The notes: generated by a model from the letters alone, not told the origin. A stretch of 64,000 bases of DNA from Synergistales bacterium (GCA_963666205.1 OY762654.1:1024001-1088000), one strand, 5' to 3'. Shown: positions 7,842 through 61,910, counted from the first letter of the stretch. Translations and numbers: made by a program.

Positions 7842-8538
7842 CGGTAAACCGATTTTGGATTTTAGATTTTGGATTTTAGATTAGATCCATTGAGTTTCTC
7901 CGTGGTGAAAAGCTTCTGGTGCTGTTTTTTTCTTTTATCGTGCAAAATAGATCCATCATTTTGCACAGTAGAAAAAAGATTTGAGGGCTTCCTCTGCGAC
8001 CTCTGCGGTAAACCGATTTTAGATTTTGGATTTTAGATTTTGGATTAGATCCATTGAGTTCCTCCGTGGTGAAAGGGTTTGGGTCCTGTTTTTTTCTTTT
8101 ATCGTGCAAAATAGATCCATCATTTTGCACAGTCGACAAAGTGGCCTATTTCTTGATCTCCTAGACCCGCGAAGCGTCCGCCCGTCCCCGGTTTATTCAG
8201 TGGTTTTTGGCGGATCTGCGGTAAAACAGCTTTTGATTTTGACCTGGTTTCCCTCCGTGCTACTCCGTGCCCTCCGTGGTGAAACAGGTTTTTGGGTTTA
8301 CGGTTCTAATCGTGCAAAATAGGTCCATCATTTTGCGCAGCACACCATTGTTTATGTTTTACATCTGCGTTACTCTGCGCAACCTCAGCGCTGAAAGTCC
8401 GCCACTACTTGGGTCTAATGGTTTTATACGATGGTTTACGGCGGATCCTCTGCGGTAAACCGATTTTGGATTTTAGATTTTGGATTTTAGATTTTGGATT
8501 AGATCCATTGAGTTCCTCCGTGGTAAAACAGCTTTTTA
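7842..8538. repeat. Modular intergenic repeat array R1
   Basis: CTCTGCG/CTCCGTG iterons, GATTTTR heptamer runs, hairpin D at 7938, 8102 and 8310, GTCCGCC..GGCGGA stems; internal ~164-bp tandem duplication. Confidence 0.9.
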
Positions 8539-9843
8539 TCATTCAACCATGTTCTTCCTGCGGTAGACCGGCAGTGCCGCCTCCCACATTCCCGGATGCT
8601 GTTTCCACAAAATAATACCCATAGCGACACATACCACACCGCCGCCCGCCAGGGTAAGGGGAGCACCGAACATGGAGGCCAGCCAGCCTGCGTTAAGGCT
8701 TCCAATGGGAGCGATCCCGAGTATGGAAACTATATATAGGCTCATCACCCTGCTCCTCTTGTTATCATCCACAAGGGTCTGGATGAAAGTATTGCATGAA
8801 ACCATGGAGGATACCATGAAAAGTCCAACAAAGACCATGAGGAACATGGACAGTGCCAGGGACCTGGAAAGGGAAAAGAGGGATACGGAAATGCCGAAAA
8901 AGGACATGGAAAAGGCCATGATCTTTCCAAGCCCCACAGGAGATCTTCTCAGGGCCAGACCGATAGACCCGGCAAGGGCTCCTATGCCGCTTGCGGCCAT
9001 CAGAAAACCCAGGGTCTGGGGACCGCCACTGAGTATTTCTCTGGCAAAAACGGGTAAAAGGACGAGATAGGGGATACCGGCAAAACTTATAACCACCAGG
9101 GCTACAATGGTATTTCGAATGGGAGAAAATCCCTTTACATAGACCAGTCCTTCCCTGAGCCCCTCAATGACCCTGCGGGGGGGACCGTCGCGATCTCCCC
9201 TGCATTCTCTAAGTTTCATTATCATAAGAGCGGCAAGGGTGGCAAAATAGCTCAACCCGTTGATAACAAAACATACACCCTCTCCAAATGCCGCGATGGT
9301 AAGCCCTCCCAGTGAGGGACCAAGGAGTCTGGCCACATTGAAAAGGGAAGAATTCAGGGCTATGGCATTACCAAGATCGTCGCTCTTATCAACAAGATGG
9401 ACCACAAAGGCCTGCCGTGCCGGTATTTCAAAGGCATTTACCACACCCAGCAGGGAACTGAGAATAATGATATGCCAGTATTCCACCCGTCCTGACAGGG
9501 TAAGAAAAGCCAGGATAAAAGCATGGACCATACTCAGTCCCTGGCATAAAAATATCACCTTTTTAAGGTCCATCTTCTCAAGGACGACCCCTGCGAACAT
9601 TCCCAGGAAAAAGACCGGGATCTGGCCCACAAAATCCACCGCACCCAGCATGAATGCAGAATCGGTCAATCTGTAGACTAGCCAGCTCATGGCAACTCTC
9701 TGCATCCACAGGCCGCTCAGGGAGACTACCTCTCCCATAAAGAATATCCTGTAGTTTCTATGTTTCATTGCCCGAAGGAGATGATGGGCTCGAACTTTTT
9801 TAAGATTTAAAACATCTGGAGCAAATCGTCCTGACCATGACAT
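8539..9843 (-). CDS. MFS transporter (MFS_3 / EntS-like)
   Basis: 12 hydrophobic segments; NAFEIPARQA, AIALNSSLFNVARLLGP. Confidence 0.9.
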   Translation of the reverse strand: MSWSGRFAPDVLNLKKVRAHHLLRAMKHRNYRIFFMGEVVSLSGLWMQRVAMSWLVYRLTDSAFMLGAVDFVGQIPVFFLGMFAGVVLEKMDLKKVIFLCQGLSMVHAFILAFLTLSGRVEYWHIIILSSLLGVVNAFEIPARQAFVVHLVDKSDDLGNAIALNSSLFNVARLLGPSLGGLTIAAFGEGVCFVINGLSYFATLAALMIMKLRECRGDRDGPPRRVIEGLREGLVYVKGFSPIRNTIVALVVISFAGIPYLVLLPVFAREILSGGPQTLGFLMAASGIGALAGSIGLALRRSPVGLGKIMAFSMSFFGISVSLFSLSRSLALSMFLMVFVGLFMVSSMVSCNTFIQTLVDDNKRSRVMSLYIVSILGIAPIGSLNAGWLASMFGAPLTLAGGGVVCVAMGIILWKQHPGMWEAALPVYRRKNMVE

Positions 9844-9873
9844 CCGGTATACCTATTCCTCTCCCTGTAAAGC

Positions 9874-9909
9874 TGAAGAGGGTTCCGAAACTGTCCGGAA
9901 CCCTCTTCT
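9874..9909 (-). terminator. Putative terminator hairpin
   Basis: GAAGAGGGTTCCG-N-CGGAACCCTCTTC. Confidence 0.6.
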
Positions 9910-9979
9910 GAATTCATTCCTCTGAAGAAAATAAAGACTGGACCGGGCAGATATTCCCCTCAGGATCAGCTGCAGATCT

Positions 9980-20454: not shown

Positions 20455-20458
20455 CAAT

Positions 20459-20720
20459 GAATCGAAAATCTAAAATCCAAAATCCAAAATCGGTTAACCG
20501 CAGAGGGTCCGCCGTAAACCATCGTATAAAACCATTAGACCCAAGTAGTGGCGGACTTTCAGCGCTGAGGTTTCGCAGAGTAACACGCAGGAAGACAAGA
20601 ACCGTAGGGTGCTGCTTTAGCGCACCGAAACGACCAAGGTTGATAGATGTCACGAAATCGTAAATTTGTACCAGGAAGGACTTTCGGATCGGAGGGCACA
20701 GAGGAAAACATAAGACATAA
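20459..20720. repeat. Modular repeat array R2 (opposite polarity to R1)
   Basis: 20470-20585 is the near-identical reverse complement of ~8366-8480; contains GTAG REP 20604-20626 and a degenerate hairpin E. Confidence 0.9.
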
Positions 20721-20805
20721 AAACCGTAGACCTTTTCACCTATATCATGAAATCCCTGCCTTATTCATTGAATAAACATAATGTACATGATAATATTTAA
20801 CCATA

Positions 20806-20833
20806 CTTCAAAAATATCATGATAATTTTGAAG
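20806..20833. promoter_or_regulatory. Palindromic operator upstream of ATPase gene
   Basis: CTTCAAAAATATCA|TGATAATTTTGAAG (1 mismatch) with extra half-sites near 20786 and 20842. Confidence 0.55.
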
Positions 20834-20865
20834 TTGACTTAAAAATTATCATAAGAGGTACCTCG

Positions 20866-22044
20866 ATGATCAAAAGATATATTGCAGATATTATCAGGGA
20901 AGATCTCCAACATAAAATGGTGTTCATAGGCGGCCCAAGACAGGTAGGAAAAACTACCCTCGCAAAAATGATAGGTGAAGATTACCCCTCTTTCACCTAT
21001 CTGAACTGGGATTTCCGCCCCCACAGAGAAGCTCTTGTAAGATCGACACTACCTGCTGAAACAAATCTCCTGATCCTTGACGAGATCCACAAATATCCTG
21101 ATTGGAAATCTCTGATAAAGGGGATCTGGGACACCAGGACAGGCGACGAATCCATTCTGGTAACTGGAAGCTCCAAGCTGGACATTTACAGAAGAGGCGG
21201 GGATTCTCTCCTTGGCAGGTACCACTATTTTCGACTTTATCCTTTGACTCTGAAAGAACTGAATTCTCAAGCTCCCGTAGGCATGGATTTCCCGGATAAA
21301 GCTCCGAAACTTGATCTGGACTTATCGGGGAAAGGATTGGACAAGCTCCTTTTTTTTGGAGGTTTTCCAGAACCTCTGCTTTCGGAAAGCGAAAGGGTAT
21401 TGAAAAGGTGGCAAAGAGAAAGATTTGAAAGGGTCTTCAGAGACGATATCAGGGAAACAGAGAACATAAGATCTCTTGCACAGATAGAGCTTCTGGCAGC
21501 TATGCTTCCATCCAGGGTGACATCACCCTTATCTCTGAATTCTCTGGCTGAAGACCTGGAAACCAGTTCAAACACAGTAAAAAGCTGGATGGATCTTCTT
21601 TGCAGAAATTATTTCACCTTTAAAATACCTCCATATCACAAGCGTCTTGAAAGGGCTCTCAAAAAAAGTTCTAAATACTATCTTTGGGACTGGTCCGAAA
21701 TAAAGGATGAAGGTGCACGTTTTGAAAACCTTATGGCAGTTCATTTGTTGAAATATGCACATTTTATCCAGGACAGCCATGGAATTTCTGTTGAACTGTA
21801 TTACCTCAGGGATACTGCTAAACGGGAAGTGGATTTTCTGCTGACTTGGCAAGACAAACCCTGGATTCTTGTCGAAACCAAGGTTAACCATGGTGATAGT
21901 TTAACCTCTCTGAACTATTTTGCAGATAAGCTTGGAGTTGATGAAAAATATGTAGTATGTCTGAATGATAAAAAAGATTACCTCGACAGGAACTCCGGCG
22001 TAAGGGTAATACCTGCAAGCAGATTTCTAATGTCCCTTGTGTGA
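20866..22044 (+). CDS. AAA_14 ATPase with DUF4143 C-terminal domain
   Basis: GPRQVGKTT Walker A, LILDEIH Walker B, VTGSS, SLLGR, GGFPE, REVDFLL..ILVETK. Confidence 0.9.
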   Translation: MIKRYIADIIREDLQHKMVFIGGPRQVGKTTLAKMIGEDYPSFTYLNWDFRPHREALVRSTLPAETNLLILDEIHKYPDWKSLIKGIWDTRTGDESILVTGSSKLDIYRRGGDSLLGRYHYFRLYPLTLKELNSQAPVGMDFPDKAPKLDLDLSGKGLDKLLFFGGFPEPLLSESERVLKRWQRERFERVFRDDIRETENIRSLAQIELLAAMLPSRVTSPLSLNSLAEDLETSSNTVKSWMDLLCRNYFTFKIPPYHKRLERALKKSSKYYLWDWSEIKDEGARFENLMAVHLLKYAHFIQDSHGISVELYYLRDTAKREVDFLLTWQDKPWILVETKVNHGDSLTSLNYFADKLGVDEKYVVCLNDKKDYLDRNSGVRVIPASRFLMSLV

Positions 22045-22047
22045 TCA

Positions 22048-22929
22048 GTCGTTTCGGTGCGCTAAAGCAGCACCCTACGGTTCTTGTCTTCCTGCGTGTT
22101 ACTCTGCGAAACATTTGCGCTTACAGTCCGCCTTAACGTCTTTGTAAGATGGTTTGCGGCGGATCCTCTGCGGTAAACCGATTTTAGATTTTGGATTTTA
22201 GATTTTGGATTAGATCCATTGAGTTCCTCCGTGGTGAAAGGGTTTTAACGGTTCAGCTTTACGGTTCTTAGGTTTAACTCGTGCAAAATAGTATCACCGT
22301 TTTGCGCAGTAGAAAAAAGATTTGAGGGCTTCCTCTGCGCTCTCTGCGCCCTCTGCGGTAAAATAGCTTTTGATTTTGACCTGGGTTCCCTCCGTGGTGA
22401 AAGGGTTTAACGGTTCAGCTTTACGGGTTTTCATGGCACAAAGCTGCGCTTTCGTGCCTCCACAAAACCTTTATCTCAGTAGCATCTGGTCCGAATGTAC
22501 GAATCTTTCATCTTACTCCTGAAGAGTTACCCCAAGGGTTTATGTCTTCCTCTGCGCTCTCTGCGCCCTCTGCGGTAAAATAGCTTTTGACTTTGACCTG
22601 GGTTTCCCTCCGTGTACCTCCGTGCCCTCCGTGGTGAAAAAGTTTGGGGTGGATGTTATAGTTACTGGTTTTATTGTTTCCATGGCACAAATCTCCGATT
22701 TCGTGCCTCCCCAAAACCTTTATCTCAGTAGCATCTGGTCTGAATGGATGTTGACATGGAACTCAACTTTATCTTACCGGCCCGAAGGTCCGCCCGTCCA
22801 CGGTTTGTTTAGATGGGTTTTGGCGGATTTCCTCTGTGCTCTCTGCGCCCTCTGCGGTAAAACAGCTTTTGACTTTGACCTGGTTTCCCTCCGTGGTACT
22901 CCGTGTCCTCCGTGGTGAAAAGGTTTGGG
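22048..22929. repeat. Modular repeat array R3
   Basis: REP, GTCCGCC stems, heptamers, hairpin D 22279, hairpin E 22435 and 22684, several iteron blocks. Confidence 0.9.
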
Positions 22930-24294
22930 TCAGGATCTCCAATAATCACATACCAGGTCTTCCAGCCTTACCAGGTTAATATCCTCTGATGATTCCAACC
23001 CCTTGAAACCTGACCTGGAGAATATATAAAATACCGTTCTGCTGCAATCCCTTCCGACTACTTTCCGGATCTTGTCAGCCTTACCTGCCAGATCCATGAA
23101 AACCCTTGAATTTGCCGGCTCACGAGTCCATTTACATTCACCAAGCACCAGGGTCTCGCCCTTTACAGCCACTATATCAACCTCATCCTCACCATCCCAC
23201 CACCTGCCCATACCTTCAGGGTTTATCCAATCTTTCAGAACCTGCCTGCAGATCTTCTCCCAGGTAAAGGAAGTATGCATAGAAAGAGTGGATGAGATCT
23301 TTTCCTGGACATCAGACCCTCTCTCCCTATAGATAAGTTCCTGATCGTCCAGCAGATACCTGAAATAAAAACGCAGATACTCATCCTCGATGAAGTACAG
23401 GGGGATCTTTTTAGGTCTTTTCAGGGAGAAGGGAAGTTCCTTGCGGATCAGTCCAAGCTCAAGGAGATTCCTCAGGTAAGTTGAAATGTTCTGATGGGGA
23501 ATACCAGTGATCTGTGCTATTTCGGATGCCCTGGTCCTGCCCTTTGCAATTGTCCTCAGGATCGAAAAATATGAAGTTGGATCCTTTTTGAACTCCTCCA
23601 TAACCAGAAAACGGCCCTCTTCCACTAGAAATTCACCAGGGCTCAGCATCGATTCCTTCAGTGCATTATTAAAAGAACCGTGTCCAGACATCTTCTTGAG
23701 ATAAAGAGGAATTCCCCCAACTGCAGAATATGTTTTTACCTGGTCTTCCATGTTCAGGTCAGGTAAAAATTTTCTTGCCTGCAGAAATCCCATAGGATCG
23801 ATACGGTATTGCCCTGTTCTTCTGCCATATATGGGACTGCTCTCTGCCAGGGTGATTCTTTCCATCATGCCGATAAAGGAACCGCAAAGCACCATCATCA
23901 CCGGCAGTTTACTGAATACCTGATCCCACCATCTCTGAAAAAGGGAAAGAAAGGAATCATCCTTGATGGGAATATACTGAAATTCGTCCCATACGATAAC
24001 CAGTTTTTCTCTGGATAATTTGATCATCTTTTCCAGAAGGGAGAACATCTCATCCCATTTAGTGACTTCCAGAGACAAAGGCAGTTCTGCTTTTTCTTTA
24101 AGGGGAATAGAGAACCTGTTGATCAGCTGCTGCGGTTCAGACATATCAGCAGTCAGGAAAAGAGCTCCGGGAAATGTGTTCTCAAGGAGGAAAGTCTTCC
24201 CTACCCTTCTCCTGCCATATATAACGACCAGCTCTGCATTTTCAGACCTGAACTTTTTTTCAAGAAATTCTTTCTCCTGTATCCGATCTATCAT
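22930..24294 (-). CDS. Archaeal-type ATPase (ATPase_2) + wHTH + DUF234 PD-(D/E)XK-like domain
   Basis: YGRRRVGKT, WDEFQY, CGS, PIYGRRT, GGIPLYL, GRWW..EVDIVA..GECKW; ATG at 24294 with GGGGGTG RBS preferred over TTG 24381. Confidence 0.88.
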   Translation of the reverse strand: MIDRIQEKEFLEKKFRSENAELVVIYGRRRVGKTFLLENTFPGALFLTADMSEPQQLINRFSIPLKEKAELPLSLEVTKWDEMFSLLEKMIKLSREKLVIVWDEFQYIPIKDDSFLSLFQRWWDQVFSKLPVMMVLCGSFIGMMERITLAESSPIYGRRTGQYRIDPMGFLQARKFLPDLNMEDQVKTYSAVGGIPLYLKKMSGHGSFNNALKESMLSPGEFLVEEGRFLVMEEFKKDPTSYFSILRTIAKGRTRASEIAQITGIPHQNISTYLRNLLELGLIRKELPFSLKRPKKIPLYFIEDEYLRFYFRYLLDDQELIYRERGSDVQEKISSTLSMHTSFTWEKICRQVLKDWINPEGMGRWWDGEDEVDIVAVKGETLVLGECKWTREPANSRVFMDLAGKADKIRKVVGRDCSRTVFYIFSRSGFKGLESSEDINLVRLEDLVCDYWRS

Positions 24295-24314
24295 ATGCGC
24301 ACCCCCAAAATCAA

Positions 24315-24357
24315 AAAATACAGAAGATATATTCTGCAAATATATCTTCTGTATTTT
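24315..24357. promoter_or_regulatory. Perfect 19-bp inverted repeat (putative operator) upstream of ATPase
   Basis: AAAATACAGAAGATATATT-CTGCA-AATATATCTTCTGTATTTT. Confidence 0.6.
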
Positions 24358-24388
24358 AAGGGCTGCTCTTATAAATTGCAAATAGTCC

Positions 24389-27149: not shown

Positions 27150-27527
27150 CTACAGCCCGTTGGCAAATCGGGTTATACCATCCTTAAGTTTGACTACATT
27201 GAAATTAATAAGCAATCCTAGTTTCTTGCCGCTCAGTTTCAAGTAAGAAAGGATCTGAGCCTTATGTATATCCGTTATTTTTTCAACGGATTTAAGTTCA
27301 ATAATAATCTCGTCCTCTACAACCAGATCCAGACGATAACCCAAGTCTATTTTGACTTCATCATAAATCACAGGAAGAACTTTCTGGGACTCAACTTTAA
27401 AGCCTCTTTTATTTAATTCATAACAAAGACAAGCTTCATATGAACTTTCGAGAAGACCCGGACCTAAAGCAGAATGTACTTTAACAGCGCTATCAATAAT
27501 TTCTTTGCTTATCTCATTTATCTCCAT
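27150..27527 (-). CDS. GxxExxY protein (PD-(D/E)XK nuclease superfamily, PDDEXK_3)
   Basis: LGPGLLESSYE, YRLDLVVEDEIIIELKSV, AQILSYLK, GLLINF; 125 aa. Confidence 0.92.
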   Translation of the reverse strand: MEINEISKEIIDSAVKVHSALGPGLLESSYEACLCYELNKRGFKVESQKVLPVIYDEVKIDLGYRLDLVVEDEIIIELKSVEKITDIHKAQILSYLKLSGKKLGLLINFNVVKLKDGITRFANGL

Positions 27528-39853: not shown

Positions 39854-40006
39854 TTGTGATGGATACATAAATATAGATAAAAATGCAAATTATCCCTGCT
39901 AGGAATTGGTAACTTATTTCCCTAAAAGAATATGAATTGACCTTAGGTTTTACTATTTGTAAACACAAGATTTCTCGTAGTATTAAATTATTAGTATGAG
40001 AAAGGA

Positions 40007-41125: not shown

Positions 41126-41231
41126 AAGCTAAGTACAGAGAAAATAGGTTTTCAAGAACCTTTTGGATTATAACATTGATTGATTGATTGATTTCTTGAA
41201 CAGTACCAAGAGATCGGATTAATAAAATTGG

Positions 41232-42359
41232 ATGGTGAAAGATTTGCGAAAAGTCCTCTTTTATACTGGGAGTCTGGCATCAGGGGGGGCAGAGAGACAG
41301 TTGATATACACTGCGCTATCCGCTCAATTAAATGGTTATAAGGTGCTTATAGTAATCGATCATGACCACTGCGACTACACCAAAATGTTGGAAGGTACAA
41401 ATATTGAAATCTATTGCACTCATTCGAACAAGTACAATCCAATAAAACGTTATATTAAATTAAATGGAATAATACAAGAATTTAAGCCTGAAATTTTCCA
41501 TTCATTCCTAGCAAACAAAAATTTATGGGGTATGTTATTAGCATATTTGAACAAAGTTCCGATTAAAATTGCCTCGATAAGAAACACTAATTCTTCAGCT
41601 TTTAAGGGAATTCAATTCTACAACAAATGGGCAGACAAGATAATATGCAATTCAAGGTTTGCATATGAAATTGCTCATTCCACATACGGAGTCCCAAGAA
41701 AAAAATTGGAAGTCATCTATAATTGCATCGATATGGATCGCTTCAACAATACAATGATCTCTCTAGATATAAAACATAATTTGGGACTTTTGGACAACAC
41801 CAAACTTGGTATAACTGTAGCTCGTTTTTCCAAACAGAAAAATCATCTGGGTTTTGTCAAAGCTTTTAGTAATTTTGTTGGAGAAAATTCAAGTGTTTGT
41901 CTGCATCATTTGTTTGTAGGCAATCAAAAAGATATAAAAATAGTGCAGCCGGTAAGAGCAACCGTTGATACCTTGAATTTATCTGAAAACATAACCTTTT
42001 GGGATACCAGAGAAGATATTCCAGAAATAATAAAAGCCTGCGATTTTCTTATACTCCCTTCTCTATATGAAGGTTTTCCAAATGTTGTTATGGAAGCGAT
42101 GGCTTCAAAAACATTTGTAATTGCAACAGCAGTAGGGGGTATACCAGAACTGGTTAAGCATATGGAAAATGGAATCTTAATTCCTAGCCCACGTGCAAAA
42201 GATATTGCAAAATCAATTGAATTATATCTCTCTCTTTCTGCTGAAAAAAAAGAACGAATAATTAATCAAGCATATATCGATATACAAAGCTACGGTATTG
42301 AAAACATGTTTAGACAAACTGAAGAGCTCTACACAGTATTTAATTTCTCCATAGGATAG
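41232..42359 (+). CDS. GT4 glycosyltransferase
   Basis: LASGGAERQ, EGFPNVVMEAM. Confidence 0.85.
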   Translation: MVKDLRKVLFYTGSLASGGAERQLIYTALSAQLNGYKVLIVIDHDHCDYTKMLEGTNIEIYCTHSNKYNPIKRYIKLNGIIQEFKPEIFHSFLANKNLWGMLLAYLNKVPIKIASIRNTNSSAFKGIQFYNKWADKIICNSRFAYEIAHSTYGVPRKKLEVIYNCIDMDRFNNTMISLDIKHNLGLLDNTKLGITVARFSKQKNHLGFVKAFSNFVGENSSVCLHHLFVGNQKDIKIVQPVRATVDTLNLSENITFWDTREDIPEIIKACDFLILPSLYEGFPNVVMEAMASKTFVIATAVGGIPELVKHMENGILIPSPRAKDIAKSIELYLSLSAEKKERIINQAYIDIQSYGIENMFRQTEELYTVFNFSIG

Positions 42360-42418
42360 CGCTGTCATAATCTCCCCCAAAAGGAACTTACCTAATCAAT
42401 AGCAACATTAGGAGGATT

Positions 42419-43339
42419 TTGCTCATGCCCAGAACCTTCATAAAATCACCAAAGAATCATAAAAGTCTAATCGCTATGCTTTTCAGCTATATAAAACCTT
42501 CTATTTGGCATATTTGCGAAATGCTACCAGATAGACTTTTTATTTCGCTTATATTTAGGAAGTCAATGGGTTATTTTCCGAACTTAAATCAACCCAAAAC
42601 ATATAACGAAAAGATTCAATGGTTAAAGTTAAATGACCGGAAACCTGAATATCATGAGATGGTTGATAAATACGAGGTTAGGAAGTTTGTTTCAGAAAGA
42701 ATAGGAAGCAAATATTTAATTGACTTGTATGGGTTATATAACTCTTCTGAAGAAATAGATTTTTGCCAGTTACCCAACCAATTCGTTATGAAATCGACAC
42801 ATGGCTCTCATTCAGTCTACATTTGCAAGAATAAAACTGAAGAGGATTACAACAAGATAAGAAATTTGAGCAAAGATTGGTTTAATCAAGACATTTATAC
42901 AAGATATAGAGAATGGGCCTACAAAGGTCTTAAAAAAAGAATAATTGCGGAAAAGTTATTAGTCGATTCAGAAGGGAAAACCCCAGATGATTATAAAATA
43001 ATGTGTTTTAATGGAAAACCAATGGTAATACAACATCATCAGAATCGTTTTGGGAACTATACCTTGGATTATTATGATTGTAATTGGAAACGATTAAGTG
43101 TTTATAGACCATATGCCCCAAATTCTTCGAACCCCAAACCTAAACCAATCAATCTAGAGAATATGGTGAACATAGCTAAATCTCTATCCAAAGGAATCAA
43201 GTTCGTTAGGGTAGATCTTTACAATTTAGGAGGAATAATTAAGTTTGGGGAAATGACTTTTTATCCAACAAGCGGTCTGACCCCATTAGAACCACCAGAA
43301 TGGGATATCTTATGGGGACAGTTAATTGATATTAGTTAA
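42419..43339 (+). CDS. TupA-like ATP-grasp protein
   Basis: NEKIQWLKL, VDKYEVR, KSTHGS, DYKIMCFNG, FVRVDLY, FGEMTFYP. Confidence 0.88.
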   Translation: MLMPRTFIKSPKNHKSLIAMLFSYIKPSIWHICEMLPDRLFISLIFRKSMGYFPNLNQPKTYNEKIQWLKLNDRKPEYHEMVDKYEVRKFVSERIGSKYLIDLYGLYNSSEEIDFCQLPNQFVMKSTHGSHSVYICKNKTEEDYNKIRNLSKDWFNQDIYTRYREWAYKGLKKRIIAEKLLVDSEGKTPDDYKIMCFNGKPMVIQHHQNRFGNYTLDYYDCNWKRLSVYRPYAPNSSNPKPKPINLENMVNIAKSLSKGIKFVRVDLYNLGGIIKFGEMTFYPTSGLTPLEPPEWDILWGQLIDIS

Positions 43340-43371
43340 TGGTCCCTTCTCAAAATTCAGAAGGGACCATT
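43338..43371 (+). terminator. Hairpin immediately after tupA-like stop
   Basis: AATGGTCCCTTCT-N8-AGAAGGGACCATT. Confidence 0.55.
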
Positions 43372-43372
43372 G

Positions 43373-43467
43373 TTGATGCCATACTTCTTGTATATGGAAG
43401 CGGGAGAGTTGCTTTATGCTTCAGCAATAATAGCCACCTTTTGATCTTGATTATAGTTTCGTAACTG
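43373..43467 (-). pseudogene. Possible transposase HTH (OrfA) fragment
   Basis: Translates QLRNYNQDQKVAIIAEA*SNSPASIYKKYGI, resembling an HTH_Tnp_1 N-terminus with an internal stop. Confidence 0.35.
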
Positions 43468-43663
43468 TAGCCTTGTTGGCCTTATTATAATTTTTCGAAT
43501 GATTTAGTACAACTCTTCTGGTGATCAGGAAGTATCAGTAATTATCAACTTCGAAATACATTTTTTCTTGAAAGCATAAGGATTCACAAAGATTTGACAT
43601 TCGAGAATTAGCTAATCAGCACTTCCTCATGTATAGGAAGCTTACCGAGAGGAGTAAGACGAA

Positions 43664-44995
43664 ATGGTAATATCCCTTTTCCAGAATTGTATAGTTTTAT
43701 TATGGTTTTCAATTGGTATATACCAGGTATACACAGGAAACAAGAACTTTTTACTTATTGGAATGCTAATAAGTTTAATTATCCCTAGATTTGTGTTAAA
43801 CGCAAATATAAAGATACCACCGCATTATTTCGTTTTTTTGCTCCTGGCAATCTGGACATTTTTCAATTTCATAATAAAAAAACAAAAAACCTCATTAGAG
43901 ATAGGATTTTTCATATTACCAATAACATATTTTTTCTTATTATGCCTTGTTTTTACAGGTTCATTAAATGGAATTTTATCAGTGGAACAAAGAGAATTTT
44001 TTGGAGCATCTCTATTTGGCCTGTTCATCTTTGTAGTAGAATTATTGTTATTTTCCTTATTTATATCCGAGTTTAGGCATCAGTATTATTGTCTGGTTAA
44101 ATCAATAGATATTATTTTTTTTACTTTGGTACTAGCCAATTTAGGCACTGCTATTTTTCAACTGTTTTTTGGCCAAATTAATATTTTCCAAAACCTTTAC
44201 AGCAGTCAGACTAATAATGTATTAGGTATAATGAGTAGAATGGGTGGTTTCCACAGAGCTACAGGCCTATTTCCAAGTCCCGTTAACCTAGGCGTTTTTA
44301 CGCTGCTAAGTTTTGCATATTTTATATATAGAAAGCAGTTTTATATCTCCTTATTATCTTGCTCTTTAGGTATATTGGCAGCTAGCAAAACCGCCATCAT
44401 TGGAATTCCTTGTCTCTCAATCCTTGTCTTGGTATTTATTTCCATAAAAAAAGTAACTACATTCACCACAAAAAAAAGCTCGATTAGATTTGCTATCTTT
44501 CTCAGTTTTACTTGCCCCATTTTATTAGTCTTAATTTATTTTTTGGGCCAAAGCAAGGGTGTGTATATAAATTATTACTTGAAATATTTAATAAAACCTT
44601 TCGATGCACTACATAGTCGATACACTGGTGACATCACTTTTCTAAAAATAACATATGAATCAATTAAACAACATTGGCTAATAGGATCAGGCTTTACATT
44701 TCTCCCGAGAGAAAATCTTGGTGACTCCATGTATATTTTTTGGTTGAAAACAACTGGTATTCTTGGTATGTGCATATTATTTACAGGCATTCTCACTCTG
44801 TTACACCATTTTCTCAACGGGGAAACCGGGATATTGATTTTTATTCTAGCTTTCCTGTTTAGTGGACTTGCACTTACTAATACAGATTTTTTTAGTAATT
44901 CAATTATGTCAGCCCTACTCGTAACAAGCAGTTCTAATAAACATAAAAACCTGCTTACAAACATTCATGTTGTTACGACATCTGATCAAAATTAG
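43664..44995 (+). CDS. Wzy-like polysaccharide polymerase
   Basis: ~11 TMs, RATGLFPSPVNLG, low GC, position in the cluster. Confidence 0.7.
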   Translation: MVISLFQNCIVLLWFSIGIYQVYTGNKNFLLIGMLISLIIPRFVLNANIKIPPHYFVFLLLAIWTFFNFIIKKQKTSLEIGFFILPITYFFLLCLVFTGSLNGILSVEQREFFGASLFGLFIFVVELLLFSLFISEFRHQYYCLVKSIDIIFFTLVLANLGTAIFQLFFGQINIFQNLYSSQTNNVLGIMSRMGGFHRATGLFPSPVNLGVFTLLSFAYFIYRKQFYISLLSCSLGILAASKTAIIGIPCLSILVLVFISIKKVTTFTTKKSSIRFAIFLSFTCPILLVLIYFLGQSKGVYINYYLKYLIKPFDALHSRYTGDITFLKITYESIKQHWLIGSGFTFLPRENLGDSMYIFWLKTTGILGMCILFTGILTLLHHFLNGETGILIFILAFLFSGLALTNTDFFSNSIMSALLVTSSSNKHKNLLTNIHVVTTSDQN

Positions 44996-45109
44996 ACATG
45001 CTTTAAACAATACCAAATATATTTAATTATTTATTAATATTTTTTCATAGATTTATCTGAACACAATATCTTATTGAACAAGTGACAAACAGGGGATATC
45101 TATTTCTAA

Positions 45110-46118
45110 TGACCTGCTCCCAGAAAAGTGGTCCAGTTGAAATGCGAGAAAGTTGCTAAAATTGGGCCCCTCGAGAAGGAATATTCATGAAGAAGAGATT
45201 TTGGAGAGGAATAGATCGTCTCCATATTGAAAGAACACAAAACAGGAATACCCGGTAAAGAGCTGGCAAGATACGGATTCAGTGAAAGACGGACGTGCGG
45301 GCTACTGAAAATACACTGAACGACATTGAGATACAACAGCAGGAAAGACAGGCAGGATGGACAGGAAAGGACAAGGTTTAAAGAACTCCCCTAGTATGGA
45401 AACGCGATCACTACATAAGGCTTCATACCCTGATTTACAGGTAAGGTTATGAGATAAACCATAAGAAGGGTGACCGGCTGTACTGTGAGGAAGATCTCAG
45501 GTTCAGGAAGAGAAGGAAGAAACGGTTGGCAAGACCACGATTATCAGAACCACTCGTTCTGGATAGAGCCAACCAGAGATGGTCGTTGGATTTTGTTTCC
45601 CATAACACAGCCATAGGGAGCAGGATCAGGATATTGACAGTAATAGATACATTTACGAGAAAATATCTTGCACTGGAAATGGAAACATACATAAGGAGAA
45701 GCCGTGTTTCCACGGTATTGGACCGGATAAGTATGAAGAGAGGTTATCCTGAAGAGATCCTTACCGACAAGGGACCAGAATTCACAAGTAAAGTAATGGA
45801 TGCCTGGGCTTATATCAGAGGAATAACCCACAGGTTTATAGAACCTGAGAAACCGTCACAGAACGGATATAGAGAGTTTCAACGGTAAGTTACGTTATGA
45901 ATGTCTAAACGAACAATGGTTTTTTAACCTTAAAGATACCATGAATATCATTGGCGAATGGAAGAAGACCTATAACGCGGAAAGACGTGACAACTTATTT
46001 GATAATATGACACCGTCGGAATTTGCTAAGAAAATAACGGTAAAAGAAGAAGCCCTCTGTGCTTAAAGATGTCAGGAAACTCGCATAGAAACTGGACCTA
46101 ATGCAGGAGGACAGGTCA
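45110..46118 (+). mobile_element. Degenerate IS3-family (IS407-like) element
   Basis: Imperfect terminal IRs TGACCTGCTCCC..GGTCCAGTT and AACTGGACC..GGACAGGTCA; frameshifted OrfA from 45188 (MKKRF..IVSILKEH) and OrfB relic (NQRWSLDFV, LTVIDTFTR, TDKGPEF, P.QNGY). Confidence 0.85.
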
Positions 46119-46347
46119 GGTCATCAAGAGGAGAATCTAAAATGAGAAGATTCTCTATTATTAGTCGATTTTTTATTCCTTCTGAATTCGCTCTGAAATA
46201 TGAAGGGGGAAAAGAAGTCACTGTTACATAGCAAGAATAAGAAACTTGTATCTATACTTACTTAAACATAAAAAGCAGATAATAGTGGCATGTCTCTTGC
46301 ATTATCTAATATCTAAGAAATAATATTTATCCTACAAATCGAAAGAG

Positions 46348-47613
46348 TTGACAAATTTAATGAAAAAGCTATCAAGTTTTTTGAAGATACGAAAAACTTT
46401 TATTTTATATGCATTACTTAAACTATTAATAATGGTTCTAGGCTTAATTACAAATATCTTCATTGTTAGGAAATTAAGCGTTAATGATTATGGAGTATTT
46501 TCAGTTGCACTTATGTTAATTGGCTTAATAACAACATTTGGATTTAGCTGGAGTTCGTCCTCGATACTGTATTATGGGAGCAAAGAAAAAACTAGGTATG
46601 GAAATATAAATAAGACATTTTGGACTAGGAACATAATTATATTTTTCAGCTTAATCATAATTACTACTATATTTATCTTATATTGGGAACAAATTAATAA
46701 TTACATAGGAATGAGAGTTTCTTTTGTAATACTAATTTGGCTATATGTAAGTGTCACAGAAGATTACTTAAGTCAATATTTTCTAGCTGTTAAAAGACAA
46801 TTATTGTCCAGCATGCTTTCGGTTACAGCAAAGATTATTTATATTGTTTTGATAATATTTATCCCATTTGATTTAGTTACACTTATCAAACTTAACATTA
46901 TCAGTCATGCTACAGTATTATTGTATATTTTTGGAATAAACAGAAAAGATGTAGGACGTTTTGATTTCGATAAAGAGTGGTTTAAAGAAGTGCTAAACTT
47001 TTCTTTGTGGCAATTATTTGGTTTTTCTGGGCTTTACCTGATAAATTTTGGTGATACGGCAGTTATAAAGTATTTTATGACAACTGAAGACGTAGGTATA
47101 TATAACGCTGCATATAAATTATTCATCGCAGTTGCTGGATTTGCATTTGTTATTTCTAGTTATTATGCATCCAACGTGTCAGAGTACTTTGTTAAAAATG
47201 AGCATGAAAAAATAAAGAACTTTTATTATCGAGAAAGGTTTTATATTTTTGCCCTAAGTACAATATTACATATTTTAGTCATGATTTTTGCTAAGCCTAT
47301 TATTTCAACTTTATACGGTGAAAGATATATTCAATCTGTGCCAATATTTAACATACTTATGGTCGGTAGTATGGCAAGATACTTCTCAGTGTTTTACATG
47401 TTATATTTCAACACAAATGGGAAATATAGAATCCAACAAGGCATTAATATTCTAAGAGCACTATTGAATCTGGTTTTAGATGTCATATTTATTAATATAT
47501 TTGGACTTATTGGACCAGCTTTAGCTACTACAATAGCAATCATAATCTCATTTATTTTTTCAATGGCTTACTGCGAAAAACAAATAATTACAAGCTCTCA
47601 GGGAGGGGAATAG
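46348..47613 (+). CDS. wzx: Wzx oligosaccharide flippase
   Basis: ~12 TMs, LSVNDYGVF, VGIYNAAY, FGLIGPALAT. Confidence 0.8.
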   Translation: MTNLMKKLSSFLKIRKTFILYALLKLLIMVLGLITNIFIVRKLSVNDYGVFSVALMLIGLITTFGFSWSSSSILYYGSKEKTRYGNINKTFWTRNIIIFFSLIIITTIFILYWEQINNYIGMRVSFVILIWLYVSVTEDYLSQYFLAVKRQLLSSMLSVTAKIIYIVLIIFIPFDLVTLIKLNIISHATVLLYIFGINRKDVGRFDFDKEWFKEVLNFSLWQLFGFSGLYLINFGDTAVIKYFMTTEDVGIYNAAYKLFIAVAGFAFVISSYYASNVSEYFVKNEHEKIKNFYYRERFYIFALSTILHILVMIFAKPIISTLYGERYIQSVPIFNILMVGSMARYFSVFYMLYFNTNGKYRIQQGINILRALLNLVLDVIFINIFGLIGPALATTIAIIISFIFSMAYCEKQIITSSQGGE

Positions 47614-48542
47614 TGAACACATCTTTAAGAGAATTGTTAAAGAATAGTGATTTGATAGTCAACCTATATGATTTCATACAAGAATTGTATTATAAACATT
47701 TCATCTCAGATGTTGGCTTAATTAAAAAAAGATTTAAAGAATCAGTCGGCAGGGAAGTAGAGCTTAACAATCCCATTAGATTTACAGACAAACAACAGTG
47801 GTTAAAGTTGAATTGGTATGATCCTTTAGCAGTAAAGTGCGCGGATAAGTATGCAGTAAGAGAATTTATAAAAGAAAGGATAGGGCAAAAATATTTAAAT
47901 GACCTGTACGGAATTTATGAATCAGTCAATGACATTGATATAGATAAATTACCTAATGCATTTGTTCTAAAGGGAACTCATGGTTCAGGTTTCAACATTA
48001 TCTGTAAAGATAAAACCCAAATGAATTGGCATGAAGAATTCAAAAAGATAAAAAGATGGCTTAAGAAAAATTATTATTGGCAAAACCGTGAATGGGTGTA
48101 CAAGAACATTAAACCTCGAATCGTCTGTGAGAAATATTTAACGGAGGAGAATTACTACAATAGCCTAACTGATTACAAAATATATTGTTTTAATGGAATA
48201 CCAAAATATTGTCAAGTAATTAGAGGACGAGGAGTTAATGAAACAATAGATTTTTATGATACTGAATGGGGTCATATGCCTTTTACAGGGTTAAGACCAT
48301 TGACTATGTCAGATAAAAACTACACAAAACCTAAAAAATATGAAAAGATGCTCGATCTAGCAAAAAGATTATCCGAAAACTTTCCATTTGTACGAGTAGA
48401 TTTTTATTATATTAAAGATAAGATTTATTTTGGAGAATTAACATTCTTCCCACTTAGTGGAATAGGGAGATTTGAACCACCAGAGTGGGATTTAATCGTT
48501 GGAAATCTGTTACAACTCCAAAAGCTCGATAAGTCGGGCTAG
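47613..48542 (+). CDS. TupA-like ATP-grasp protein, second paralog
   Basis: QWLKL, ADKYAVR, KGTHGSG, DYKIYCFNG, FVRVDFY, FGELTFFP. Confidence 0.88.
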   Translation: MNTSLRELLKNSDLIVNLYDFIQELYYKHFISDVGLIKKRFKESVGREVELNNPIRFTDKQQWLKLNWYDPLAVKCADKYAVREFIKERIGQKYLNDLYGIYESVNDIDIDKLPNAFVLKGTHGSGFNIICKDKTQMNWHEEFKKIKRWLKKNYYWQNREWVYKNIKPRIVCEKYLTEENYYNSLTDYKIYCFNGIPKYCQVIRGRGVNETIDFYDTEWGHMPFTGLRPLTMSDKNYTKPKKYEKMLDLAKRLSENFPFVRVDFYYIKDKIYFGELTFFPLSGIGRFEPPEWDLIVGNLLQLQKLDKSG

Positions 48543-52268: not shown

Positions 52269-53270
52269 AATGGGGTCAGACCTTGATTTTAACCGTATGT
52301 ATTCAGTATTATGTAAATATTTTAGCCCTGCGAAAACCATGAAACCATAAAATCCAACCATCACCCTTTCTCACCACGGAGGTCACGGAGGAAGTTCGGA
52401 GGAAACACTGGAGCAAGACCAAAAGACATATTTTACCGCAGGGACTCTCCGAGTCCGCGCAGAGGCCGCAGAGAGGAGCACGCAGAGGGGATCGTTATCC
52501 TTTAACCCAGGACATCTGAGCAATCTGGAGCCATTGCTCATCTCGCAATAATAAATTTCCAGGCAAAATATAGATATTTCCCCTGTTCATTGTTTTATTG
52601 CCTTGAAAAATATACTTCATATTTTTCATTATTGTCCTAGGCTTTCAAATGCAAGGAGATGAAAAAAAATTTAGAAACAGGAGGCTTTGGCAATCTTTCC
52701 CGTGAATTTATCCATTACCTGGAAAATGATTTCATCATTTTCCTAATGTCCCGGGTTTTCAAGAAAACCTATTTACAAAGGAAAACTACAGGGACCATTA
52801 CACCCAAACCATAAATCCTGGGTGGTTAATGAACCCATGACATCTTCCAAGGGCATTTCGATGCGTTGAAGTCCGCCGCAAATCCGTCAAAGATCTTCCA
52901 AAAACTTAAAGCAGGATGGCCGGACATTCTGCCCTTTCATATAAAACCGTCAGGCCCGAGTAGTGGCGGACTTTCAGCGCGGGTCTAGAAGATCAAGAAA
53001 TAGGCCACTTTGTCGGCTGCGAAAAATAAGACTAGATTTTTCACGAATAAAACACCGGGAAAAGTTTAAGATGCGCTGAAGCACATCCTATGGATTGCTG
53101 TCGCGTAGGAAGGCACAAACCTTGAGGTAACTGTTCAGGAGTAACATCCTATTTTCGTCCGGACAGACTATCGGTGCGCTGAAGCACACCCTATGACCAA
53201 GGTTTTGGGGAATAAACATAAAAATATTATTGAGCGTTTTGGTGCGCTGAAGCGGCACCCTATGGAGGGA
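52269..53270. repeat. Modular repeat array R12 (partly degenerate)
   Basis: 34-bp element 52269-52302, iterons 52370-52490, GTCCGCC stem, hairpin D' 53017, three REP-like palindromes 53070-53263. Confidence 0.8.
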
Positions 53271-56664: not shown

Positions 56665-57000
56665 ACAGGTCAAAAACAAAATCAAAGTCAAGATATGTTT
56701 TACCGCAGAGGACGCAGAGTAACGCAGAGGAAATCAAACATGAGGGAACCCATGCTGCGAAAAATCAGACTCGATTTTTCACGAATAACCCCCGAATCAT
56801 AGCCCATAAAACTGTTTACCACGGAGGGACACGGAGGAAGGCATAAAGAATGGTGTGCTGCGCAAAATGATGGACCTATTTTGCACGATTAGAACCGTAA
56901 ACCTTGTAACCCTGTCTAACCGCAGAGGGCGCAGAGGAAAAGAAAATCGCACATTAACAATAGAATGATGCGCTGAAGCACATCCTATGGAAAACTAACA
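56665..57000. repeat. Modular repeat array R13
   Basis: Iterons, hairpin D' 56755, hairpin D 56858, REP-like 56967-56988. Confidence 0.88.
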
Positions 57001-58094: not shown

Positions 58095-58555
58095 AATCAG
58101 GATCAAGACATATTTTACCGCAGAGGAAACCGAAAGACTGAGAACCGTAAACCAAAAAACCTGTTTCACCACGGAGGACACGGAGGAGGATCTGAGGAAA
58201 ACCAGATCAAAATCAAAACACGTTTTACCGCAGAGGGCGCAGAGAGCGCAAAGGAAAGCATGAACCCTTGGTTAGAACAGACTGTTTCTGAATTCTGAAT
58301 GAGGTATGTTCGGATGATATGCTACTTTACCGATAGGTTGTTGGATGTCACGAAATCGGAGATTTGTGCCATGGAAACCCGTAAAGCCCAAACGCTAAAA
58401 CCCTTTCACCACGGAGGACACGGAGGTACACGGAGGAGACCGTTAAACCAATAAATCCTTGTGTTACTGCGCAAAATGATGGACCTATTTTGCACGATTA
58501 GAACCGTAAACCGTTTAACCCTGTCTAACTGCAGAAGGCGTAGGGGACAAAAACC
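58095..58555. repeat. Modular repeat array R14
   Basis: Iterons, 92-bp element + hairpin E 58347, hairpin D 58467. Confidence 0.9.
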
Positions 58556-59613: not shown

Positions 59614-59754
59614 GGGTTCCTCCTGGAAATTAAAGCATTATTGTTTATTGTAATGCATTTTGAAGAGGAAAATGAAGATTTTACCTTATTGAAACGGTTT
59701 TAATAATATAATATTACAGTTAAGGTAGTAATGGAAAACCGAAGAAAATTGAGT

Positions 59755-59776
59755 GGTGCGCTGAAGCGCACCCTGC
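59755..59776 (-). repeat. Isolated REP-like palindrome
   Basis: GCAG-GGTGCGCT-TC-AGCGCACC on - strand. Confidence 0.7.
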
Positions 59777-59829
59777 TCTAAAAGTTGTAGACCATATTAT
59801 GAAATCTTAATTTTTCTGGGGGGATAGAT

Positions 59830-61161
59830 TTGAACAGTATGAAAATAGGTGTAATAGGGACAGGTTATGTGGGGCTGGTTTCAGGACTTTGCCTGGCAGA
59901 CTTCGGCTTCACCGTTACCTGCGGTGATATAGATGTTTCAAAGATCGAGAGGCTCAACAGTGGAGAGATTCCCATATACGAGCCAGGGCTCAAGTCCGTT
60001 TACGATCGGGTAACCGAGCTCGGGAGAGTTACCTTTACCACTAATATCGATACCCTGGTAAACGACAGCGATGTGATCTTCATCTGCGTCGGAACTCCTC
60101 CTGAAGAAGACGGTTCCGCTGACCTCAAGTACGTCTGGCAGGTAGCAGAGACCATAGGAAAGAACCTGGAAACTTACAAGGTCATAGTAGATAAATCTAC
60201 CGTTCCAGTTGGTACGGCCCGAAAGGTTTATGACATCATCAAAGGTCAACTGGCTGAAAGAAATATGGATTCTGCCTTCGATGTGGTTTCAAATCCGGAA
60301 TTTCTCAGGGAAGGGAAAGCCGTCCATGATTTCACCCATCCGGACAGGATAGTTATAGGTTCCGATTCAGAGAGGGCCTGTGAGATCATGAAAAAGGTTT
60401 ACAGTCCCTTGAAGCTCAATGAGGTTCCCTTCGTGCTGACAAATCCCGAGACGGCGGAATTGATAAAATATGCCTCCAACGCTTTTCTGGCCACAAAGAT
60501 CGGTTTTATAAACGAAATAGCAAACCTGTGCGAGGCTGTTGGTGCAGATGTCCATAAGGTGGCAAAATCCATGGGTATGGACGGACGGATAAGCAGCAAG
60601 TTCCTCCACCCTGGCCCCGGTTACGGCGGCAGCTGTTTTCCCAAGGACACCATGGCCCTGGTGAATATGGCCAGAGAAAATGGTGTGGACTCCCTGGTGG
60701 TTTCTGCCGTGGTGGACTCCAATATCAGGCAAAAGGTCAGAATGGCAGAGAAGATAAAAAAGGCCTTTGGCGGAGATGTAGCAGGAAAGCAGATAGCGAT
60801 CCTGGGTTTGAGTTTCAAGCCGGAGACGGATGACGTTAGGGAATCCCCTGCCCTGGTAATAATCCCCGAGCTTCTGCAGAGGGGTGCTTTGGTACACGCC
60901 TACGATCCCCAGGGGATCGGTGAAACAAAGAAGGCTCTTACTGAGAGTGATGCAGATATTCTGTACACTGCTGATGAATATGACGCGTGCAAGGGTGCGG
61001 ATGCTGTTGTTATACTCACCGACTGGAACCAGTTCCGCAGGCTCGATCTTCAGAGGCTTAAAGACCTTATGAAAGGGAACAGGTTCTTCGACTTCAGGAA
61101 CATCTACGACCGGGAAGAGGTTGAAGGTATGGGGTTCTATTATGAAGGGGTGGGAAGGTAG
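59830..61161 (+). CDS. ugd: UDP-glucose 6-dehydrogenase
   Basis: GTGYVG, KSTVPVG, NPEFLREG, GYGGSCFPKD, FKPETDD. Confidence 0.92.
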   Translation: MNSMKIGVIGTGYVGLVSGLCLADFGFTVTCGDIDVSKIERLNSGEIPIYEPGLKSVYDRVTELGRVTFTTNIDTLVNDSDVIFICVGTPPEEDGSADLKYVWQVAETIGKNLETYKVIVDKSTVPVGTARKVYDIIKGQLAERNMDSAFDVVSNPEFLREGKAVHDFTHPDRIVIGSDSERACEIMKKVYSPLKLNEVPFVLTNPETAELIKYASNAFLATKIGFINEIANLCEAVGADVHKVAKSMGMDGRISSKFLHPGPGYGGSCFPKDTMALVNMARENGVDSLVVSAVVDSNIRQKVRMAEKIKKAFGGDVAGKQIAILGLSFKPETDDVRESPALVIIPELLQRGALVHAYDPQGIGETKKALTESDADILYTADEYDACKGADAVVILTDWNQFRRLDLQRLKDLMKGNRFFDFRNIYDREEVEGMGFYYEGVGR

Positions 61162-61910
61162 TTCGATTTTAGATTGGGGATTTTGGATTAAAAGATAGAA
61201 AACAACACCCAGAGCTTAAAAACTGTTTTACCGCAGAGAACGCAGAGGAAATCCTCAAATCTTTTTTTACTGCACAAAATGATGCACCAGTTTTGCACGA
61301 TTAGAACCGTAAACCTTTTAACCCTGTCTAACCGCAGAGGGCGCAGAGAGCGCAGAGGGAAGCATGAACCCTTGGTTAGAACAGACTGTTTCTGAATTCT
61401 GAATGAGGTATGTTCGGATGATATGCTACTTTACCGATAGGTTGTTGGATGTCACGAAATCGGAGATTTGTGCCAGGAGTCTAACTTCTAACCTGGAGGA
61501 CACAGAGGAAAACATAAAACCTAAGTCAAAATCTATTTTACTGCAGAGGATCCGCCGTAAACCATCGTATAAAACCATTAGACCCAAGTAGTGGCGGACT
61601 TTCAGCGCAGAGGAAAGCATGAACCCTTGGATTTGAAAATCTACTGCGCAAAACGGTGATACTATTTTGCTCGAGTTAAACCTAAGAACCGTAAAGCTGA
61701 ACTGTTTAAACCTTTCACCACGGAGGGCACGGAGTGCCACGGAGGTAAACCAGGTCAAAATCAAAAGCTGTTTTACCGCAGAGGGCGCAGAGGAAGGCGT
61801 AAGCCCTTGGGGTAACTGTTCAGGGATAACATCCCATATACATCCGGACAGATCATATCCTACTATGATAAAGGTTTTGGGGAGGCACAAAATCGGAGAT
61901 TTGTGACATG
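61162..61910. repeat. Modular repeat array R15
   Basis: Hairpin D 61270 and 61644, hairpin E 61451 and 61884, GTCCGCC stem, iterons; segments shared with R1, R2, R3, R7 and R14. Confidence 0.9.

Follow-up and report, generated by a model that had tools for sequence, protein, structure and literature searches.

Hairpin D, a candidate one-directional junction module in mosaic intergenic arrays of a Synergistota bacterium

It is a long-standing question how mosaic intergenic arrays, such as the Neisseria intergenic mosaic elements (NIMEs) and the bacterial interspersed mosaic elements (BIMEs), come to be assembled and reshuffled. In the available passages of the 2007 paper on NIMEs (PMC1797815), the dRS3 repeats of Neisseria are described as being used by a phage-encoded recombinase, and NIME arrays as not seen outside that genus. 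For repetitive extragenic palindromic (REP) sequences, the part of PMC8266576 at hand reports that TnpA-REP cleaves at C|T, 5′ or 3′ of the REP, and joins a 3′-C. The present work concerns hairpin D, a short repeat of a 64,000-nt stretch (the window; positions 1,024,001–1,088,000) of the closed, 2.95-Mb genome of a Synergistales bacterium (G000; GCA_963666205.1). Its copies were compared with those of a sister species (G001) and of a further genome of the same family (G002, 97% complete), and suggest that D marks a polar junction between array modules.

The window is an exopolysaccharide and surface-protein region, and a Synerg-CTERM protein assigns the genome to the Synergistota. Outside the low-GC core of the window, nearly every intergenic gap carries co-oriented modules arranged as a mosaic: heptamer arrays (CTCTGCG, CTCCGTG and GATTTTR), a hairpin named C, REPs of the type that accompanies REP-associated tyrosine transposases (RAYTs), hairpin D, and linkers of 20–45 nt. 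The majority of the G000 copies of these modules lie in the window. Hairpin D (30–32 nt; consensus TC-GTG(C/A)-AAAA-Y-loop-R-TTTT-(G/T)C(G/A)C-AG) has a 9-bp stem and an asymmetric TC/AG foot. The window holds 17 copies, against 0.005 expected (maximum of one, 200 dinucleotide shuffles). A preliminary description of the window had placed the hairpin at 13 positions; it was found at all 13, the position given being the T of the 5′ TC, with the GTG of the stem 2 nt further on. Three of these copies (53017, 56755 and 61644) lie on the minus strand, and four more were identified (34965, 56858, 58467 and 61270). The copies, and one site at which a D flank occurs without the hairpin, are listed below.

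7938–7968, plus strand: hairpin D with a C-G stem and a 9-nt loop; 5′ flank and core as at 8102, 3′ flank different.
8102–8132, plus strand: hairpin D; 3′ flank of the YCGACAAAG family.
8310–8340, plus strand: hairpin D.
22279–22309, plus strand: hairpin D with loop AGTATCACC; 3′ flank common to 7938.
27608–27637, plus strand: hairpin D with the inner pair T-A changed to C-G.
29049–29079, plus strand: hairpin D; contigs of related populations depart right after base 29079.
30755–30785, plus strand: hairpin D.
31302–31331, plus strand: hairpin D with an A-T stem and an 8-nt loop.
34363–34451, plus strand: hairpin D (34363–34392), linker and CTCTGCG triple; left 89-bp direct repeat around a GxxExxY gene.
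34965–34995, plus strand: hairpin D with a double compensatory change (GGTC/GACC); missed by the preliminary description.
35087–35175, plus strand: hairpin D (35087–35116), linker and CTCTGCG triple; right 89-bp direct repeat, X4 contigs diverging after 35116.
53017–53046, minus strand: hairpin D with a RAYT-type ATAG REP 24 nt upstream of it; 3′ flank common to 8102.
56755–56784, minus strand: hairpin D with an A-T stem.
56858–56888, minus strand: hairpin D.
58120–58160, minus strand: site without D, where a D 5′ flank is joined directly to CAG-T.
58467–58497, minus strand: hairpin D.
61270–61300, minus strand: hairpin D with one G.T and one C.A pair.
61644–61674, minus strand: hairpin D with one broken pair (A.G).

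Collection of D copies gave 27 in G000, 32 in the fetched parts of G001 and three in G002, a combined set of 62; linkage was tested on 60, since two contig-end copies lack a 5′ flank. Flanks were clustered over 25 nt with a threshold of 12 (99.9% of shuffles scored below 7), yielding ten 5′-linker and nine 3′-linker families. When two copies shared the 5′ flank but not the 3′ flank, their core class (stem type and length) was the same in 27 of 32 pairs, against 7.5 expected (0 of 20,000 permutations), which agrees with the earlier proposal that the 5′ flank mostly travels with the loop type. When the 3′ flank was shared but not the 5′ flank, the core class agreed in 13 of 50 pairs (11.7 expected; P 0.37). 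Loop distance was 2.2 in 5′-sharing pairs, 4.3 in 3′-sharing pairs and 4.0 by chance, and the mismatch at position −6 was 0.06, 0.46 and 0.48, respectively. Position −4 showed no clear linkage to either flank, and position +1 already differed in 21 of the 32 5′-sharing pairs. Because the core and position −6 follow the 5′ flank and not the 3′ flank, and +1 already differs, sequence comparison places the exchange within the last five bases of the D 3′ arm (CRCAG), where the 5′ neighbour is kept and the 3′ neighbour traded. This 5-nt window is the limit of resolution, a single-base point lying below it.

The two 3′-flank swaps that had been noticed by eye (7938/22279 and 8102/53017) proved exact, and the switch points mapped from the flanks fall within CRCAG. 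The idea of a fixed exchange point thus holds in a polar form, with the qualification that switches on the 5′ side occur, if rarely (2 of 50 pairs: 34363/35087, and 38740/57617 in G001). The motif at the end of D can be written CAG-Y-A, +1 being Y in 59 of 60 copies and +2 being A in 44 of 60. Inside arrays, 3′ linkers lacking a D in front gave no matches (up to four mismatches allowed in 24 nt), and one 5′-linker family was found twice joined straight to CAG with no hairpin. Ordinary homologous recombination that could fall at any point of the 30-bp repeat, mismatched hairpins being purged or repaired afterwards, is very unlikely to have produced this pattern: it predicts symmetric linkage, whereas loop and stem follow the 5′ flank only. 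The 89-bp direct repeats around the gene at 34499, together with longer shared blocks, would be suitable substrates for it, two copies (G000 2125868 and G001 574695) have the mismatched stems that a mid-hairpin crossover predicts, and the rare 5′-side switches also speak in its favour.

The stem of D has changed in sequence while its pairing has been kept, as the preliminary description had claimed. Among 49 distinct cores, all 27 two-sided changes preserved pairing, with at least eight pair types at six of the nine positions, while one-sided changes kept pairing 23 times and broke it 13 times. On 36 of the 62 copies, five of the nine stem pairs varied on both sides, the covariation score was 0.260 against 0.101 in shuffled sets (none of 500 shuffles reached it), and four of five pair-count measures exceeded all 500 shuffles, the fifth exceeding all but one. 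Since the copies are related and were chosen with a pairing filter, these figures overstate significance and are descriptive. The pair at stem position 6 (C-G or A-T) was matched in 45 of 45 strict-pattern copies of the three genomes and, among the chance matches listed from unrelated genomes, in 51 of 98. Two G001 copies found later each have pair 5 broken.

Part of this covariation may have a mechanical origin. At G000 2,469,529, three changes in the 5′ foot, which set it apart from its G001 counterpart, turn it into the exact complement of the 3′ foot and flank. They could reflect template switching between the hairpin arms (cf. the available part of PMC5941160), although a central deletion between inverted copies could also have produced them (cf. 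passages of PMC6006769). As one copy shows arm-to-arm copying, two-sided changes need not reflect selection alone. It might be argued, then, that no dedicated enzyme is involved: a polymerase would stall on the template at the hairpin foot and switch copies over 5–7 nt of microhomology, arm-to-arm switching generating the two-sided changes. The foot at 2,469,529 has the signature of template switching as described in that part of PMC5941160, multi-base symmetric changes occur (GGTC/GACC, ACAC/GTGT), and in 37 of 49 cores folding is more favourable on the top strand. Nevertheless, this explanation seems rather unlikely. The hairpin is weak and nearly symmetric (−6.2 kcal/mol for the top strand versus −5.5 for the bottom strand), which hardly explains a one-sided bias; D lies on the lagging-strand template in about 13 of 27 copies, as read from GC skew, and so shows no bias; a T.G pair (27 of 49 cores) and the TC/AG foot persist uncorrected; and heptamer arrays free of hairpins also swap flanks.

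The same stem could be required in RNA. If D were a terminator, a processing site or a protein-binding hairpin, the flank pattern would be incidental; in favour of this, G.T outnumbers A.C on the top strand by 36 to 3 over stem positions 3–11, a ratio that falls to 9 to 3 when position 4 is left out. Against it, D is sense to the upstream gene in 13 of 27 copies and spread over the four gene contexts (9, 7, 6 and 5), the window gave no Rfam match, no U-run follows the stem, and the inversion breakpoints described below would be left unexplained. An RNA element is accordingly a highly improbable account of D. Because there is no orientation to transcription and Rfam is silent, a DNA-level role is the better reading and RNA-level selection unlikely. 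Of the earlier suggestion that the structure is selected in single-stranded DNA or RNA, the conserved stem stands and the RNA half is unlikely.

Natural rearrangements between relatives also involve the D foot. The block D-spacer-D at G000 2,469,528–2,469,651 is inverted in G001 contig C7 (124 bp, 91.9% identity); the inverted match stops at the 3′ CAG foot on either side, and collinearity is kept in the outer arrays and genes. Elsewhere, orthologous spacers of G000 and G001 have been rebuilt from the same parts, as in the following example.

22040–22930, plus strand: mosaic array of co-oriented modules (REP; CTCTGCG, CTCCGTG and GATTTTR arrays; hairpins C and D; linkers of 20–45 nt), rebuilt in G001.

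Genes between arrays are missing at the same places in G001, namely those for a DUF234 ATPase (22930–24381) and a pilin-like protein (28143–28724), and the gene at 34499. Contigs from two sequencing runs of related populations (X4 and X5) were compared with the window. They leave its sequence right after D at 29079 (X4 and X5) and 35116 (X4), and contigs of both runs bridge over the gene at 34499; the pilin-like gene had low depth in both. A joint at 27600 in X4 could not be distinguished from mis-mapping and was not used. In G001, a 5-kb segment at L138 (C14:138548-143800) lies between two REP-linker-D copies, as if inserted at such a unit, of which G000 has one copy (C1:1418192). Locus L125 of G001 (C3:54931-55530) contains an exact tandem duplication of a 298-bp array unit, running from one CTCTGCG array to the next.

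A possible enzyme is encoded beside D. Only two GxxExxY genes are present in G000, both inside the window.

27150–27527, minus strand: GxxExxY nuclease-like gene P0002 (125 aa; PF13366, TIGR04256), with inverted CTCTGCG arrays; D lies 81 nt upstream.
34499–34876, plus strand: GxxExxY nuclease-like gene P0001 (125 aa), at the wza–wzz junction, where G001 lacks it.

D lies 79–106 nt from all four GxxExxY genes of G000 and G001 and about 100–120 nt before that of L169 (a locus of a relative, as are the other L numbers; L125, L138 and L141 belong to G001), that is, within about 120 bp of all five seen in this lineage. Arrays of CTCTGCG, CTCCGTG or CTTTGCG frame both window genes, and inverted heptamer arrays frame those at 27150–27527 and G001 C7:581009, as they do many other loci. 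The distance from the D foot to the next heptamer array is 21–40 nt in 31 of 47 cases. These arrays carry the CTGCG core of D on the opposite strand; junctions at which two heptamer arrays meet back to back, which would provide D directly, were looked for and none was found. The gpsA-ferredoxin spacer differs between the two species. In G000 (C1:2457900-2458830) it contains a RAYT and inverted ATAG REP pairs, with one terminal CTTTGCG unit kept, and in G001 (L141, C7:580670-581660) a GxxExxY gene with inverted D-linker-CTTTGCG pairs on both sides; the outer junctions are common to both. GxxExxY proteins have invariant residues D67, E77, K79, Q91 and Y95. The model of P0001 (pLDDT 95.5; the single-sequence model was poor) has a PD-(D/E)XK fold and matches BpuSI and Cas4 SSO0001 (Z 8.0–8.1, rmsd 2.9–3.3, 93–99 residues aligned); no solved structure was matched by sequence. 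The literature searched, most subscription journals lying outside it, yielded no paper on GxxExxY-linked repeats or hairpin D and no described function for the family; matches to GxxExxY, PF13366 or TIGR04256, judged by title or the start of the abstract, included none on repeats.

These observations suggest, tentatively and at slightly less than even confidence, that D is a one-directional junction module of mosaic intergenic arrays, nicked at its foot, most plausibly by the neighbouring GxxExxY protein, a predicted nuclease, with host repair completing the exchange. Cutting by GxxExxY is proposed from its neighbourhood and predicted fold. The CTYTGCG/CTCCGTG heptamer arrays, which for most D feet begin 21–40 nt downstream, would position the nuclease. 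Nicking in CRCAG or next to it would release an end able to pair with the foot of another D, where it would be extended or joined; such an end would retain the core and everything 5′ of it. Host repair would probably finish the exchange. Two-sided stem changes would arise by arm-to-arm templated copying and be kept because an extruded hairpin is needed, and exchange between arrays would move the accessory genes located between those arrays. A stronger version, in which GxxExxY proteins are heptamer-guided, site-specific nickases that do the job of RAYTs by an unrelated, PD-(D/E)XK chemistry, cutting the D 3′ foot and driving polar shuffling, inversion and gene-cassette exchange within NIME-like arrays around surface-polysaccharide loci, is possible but doubtful.

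Several points weigh against a polar junction served by GxxExxY. The 32 and 50 flank-sharing pairs are not independent, and the contrast is softer by family, a single stem type being found in eight of ten 5′ families versus five of nine 3′ families. The 19 metagenome loci besides L169 (10 of 40 loci were left out) mostly keep one 5′ and one 3′ flank type, so swapping at D is not universal among related metagenome loci. Heptamer arrays also decouple flanks, both being shared in 23 of 168 and 244 pairs, and the contig departures after 29079 and 35116 may come from paralogous copies. As to the enzyme, Z-scores of about 8 are commonplace in fold comparisons, a search of G002 (three D copies) found no GxxExxY gene, and 15 of the 32 G001 copies of D are on contigs without such a gene. 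D-like hairpins were absent beside 37 located GxxExxY genes of other lineages (in a survey of 41 flank loci, one weak, unrelated hairpin was seen). D is thus not a general part of a GxxExxY cassette, and its closeness to these genes may only reflect shared arrays. The D heptamer, CRCAGYA, departs from the usual CRCNRAK units, and the fixed spacing from D to array could stem from common descent of the linkers. Finally, PD-(D/E)XK nucleases form no covalent intermediate, so the GxxExxY nuclease cannot join strands itself.

The preliminary description had pointed instead to an HUH/Y1 enzyme or an attC-type site. Three Y1 genes were found in G000, none flanked by D: one RAYT (2458047-2458601), which is flanked by ATAG REPs and lies 11 kb from the nearest D, and two long, HTH-tailed genes flanked by GGGGTCAG inverted repeats that match the available description of TIRYT/subclass 2.1. 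D was therefore rejected as the cognate repeat of the resident Y1 enzymes, which have other repeats. What persists of the Y1 proposal is that the RAYT would cut the invariant C|T at the bottom-strand foot of D and join other C-ended strands. CT is present at that 5′ foot in all 60 copies counted, inside the crossover window; the reaction is the one reported for TnpA-REP in the part of PMC8266576 cited above; G000 has a RAYT; and the arrays contain REPs, which in one 5′ family of four copies precede D by 24 nt. We nonetheless consider it distinctly unlikely. The flanks of the RAYT itself are ATAG REPs and not D, and D has no GTAG foot on either strand (NNTC on the top strand, with one CGTC among 60, and NRCT on the bottom strand). 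In G001, where D has 34 copies, the only Y1 genes are the two long ones, accompanied by GGGGTCAG repeats. Moreover, joining of any C-ended strand explains neither the pyrimidine at +1 nor the restriction of 3′ linkers to places after D. A near-identical 30-nt element ending in CAAGGTCTGACCCC is present at 31473 (plus strand) and 52272 (minus strand) and about ten more times in G000; it is the inverted-repeat type found before long Y1-HTH (TIRYT-like) genes and marks array edges.

The imperfect hairpin between exchangeable genes would fit an attC-like site or a target for an IS110-type recombinase, and for the latter the dRS3 repeats with their phage-encoded recombinase offer a precedent in the passages of PMC1797815 mentioned above. 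The best match to the integron integrase model TIGR02249 in G000, G001 and G002 was 72 bits, against a cut-off of 265, and six PF00589 matches were read as Xer- or phage-type. The attC core (RYYYAAC...GTTRRRY) occurred in 0 of 62 D copies on either strand, and D was discarded as an integron site. IS110 genes were absent from these three genomes (they are present in the genomes G003 and G004). Fused ends of IS1182/IS5-type elements were likewise rejected, as G000 has no DUF772 or DDE_Tnp_1 and no multi-copy insertion sequence (IS) among repeats of at least 300 bp, and so were IS200/IS605 ends or palindrome-associated transposable elements, only TC being conserved 5′ of the stem, with no guide tetranucleotide and no lagging-strand bias. 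For resident genes the attC/IS110 explanation is therefore largely refuted, and as a whole it is barely credible; a visiting phage or plasmid recombinase is possible.

D is restricted in its distribution. A covariance model detected 25 copies in G000, 34 in G001 and three in G002, and two weak single matches in the other 58 of 61 genomes searched; that in G004 is a variant, D′, and that in G006 is AT-rich and was rejected. Multi-copy D was thus found in this family only. In a scan of a genome collection (48 of 64 parts), 98 of 113 loci outside the family behaved as chance, among the matches listed. D′ has the loops of D on a CG...CG base, lacks the TC/AG foot and is present in relatives of the family (L166, L168, L169, L172, L174, L175, L199, L204 and L240). 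Inspection by eye removed two regular-expression matches (G000 1052104 and 1639749) ahead of counting. A 'degenerate D' at window position 29400 proved, by comparison with G001, to be the tail of hairpin C. Some metagenome copies have a small open frame running across D; it is frameshifted in others and was rejected by eye.

Other modules and genes of the region deserve mention. Hairpin C (40 copies in G000 and the fetched parts of G001) has a bulge, its own two-sided changes and no clear flank linkage; in the window it lies at 22433, 22682, 24534, 27736, 27942, 29173, 29343, 30970 and 31224 on the plus strand, and at 20649, 27083, 30433, 58347, 61451 and 61884 on the minus strand. GATTTTR arrays frame, in inverted orientation, a four-helix-bundle (PF05635) gene at G000:C1:1513900-1514680, and also occur without a gene in the window at 7850, 8016, 8470 and 22186. 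An AAA_14/DUF4143 ATPase gene (20570–22112) is bracketed by inverted GTAG-type REPs. D arrays are absent from 36500–48500, a low-GC (30–40%) glycosyltransferase block that includes an integrase-core (rve) fragment at 45526–45888. The Synerg-CTERM surface protein encoded at 29580–30137 keeps both ends relative to its G001 counterpart, while the middle differs.

GxxExxY is a widespread nuclease family, for which D would provide a substrate and a predicted cut site, with the exchange mapped to 5 nt from sequence. Should the link hold, a nuclease without transposase chemistry would organise the turnover of repeats and cargo genes at surface loci, and if the stronger version is true, the swap of RAYT and GxxExxY at one chromosomal site would represent two enzyme families competing for one niche. 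Should it fail, the D arrays would still clearly exemplify a NIME-like organization with a polar junction in a host other than Neisseria.

The closest described systems resemble D arrays in organization and differ in the repeat. As far as the available passages of PMC1797815 go, NIMEs share with D arrays a short inverted repeat with a variable centre that alternates with many families of short linkers, syntenic arrays that differ between strains, clustering around surface-structure genes, and a site-specific enzyme proposed to act at the repeat. D differs in its 9-bp covarying stem, asymmetric foot, one-sided swap and the several other modules mixed in, as well as in sequence (dRS3 is ATTCCC-N8-GGGAAT), in the lack of an IS110-type enzyme in G000, G001 and G002, and in its Synergistota host. 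With REPs, BIMEs, REPINs and RAYTs, as presented in parts of PMC2817692, PMC8266576 and PMC6006769, D shares the form of a 20–40-nt imperfect intergenic palindrome whose stem is kept by complementary changes, membership of mosaic arrays whose content differs between syntenic loci of G000 and G001, and inverted pairs that flank a small nuclease gene; a true RAYT with its REPs occupies in G000 the site of the GxxExxY and D units of G001. In contrast to those REPs, D lacks a GTAG/CGTC foot, the adjacent gene encodes a PD-(D/E)XK nuclease rather than an HUH Y1 enzyme, and about 30 copies lie in islands where REPs number hundreds. Unlike the heptamer cassettes of GxxExxY genes, D is limited to this family and missing from the 37 flanks located elsewhere. 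attC sites are also imperfect hairpins between exchangeable genes with a fixed crossover near one end, but D has no GTTRRRY core, IntI or lagging-strand bias, and many D copies share a spacer with no one-gene-one-site order. Passages of PMC3733652 and PMC3184786 do not mention D. On the passages of PMC1797815 and PMC2817692 available, D arrays work like those of a NIME or BIME, but the repeat itself is distinct from dRS3, from GTAG REPs and from attC sites.

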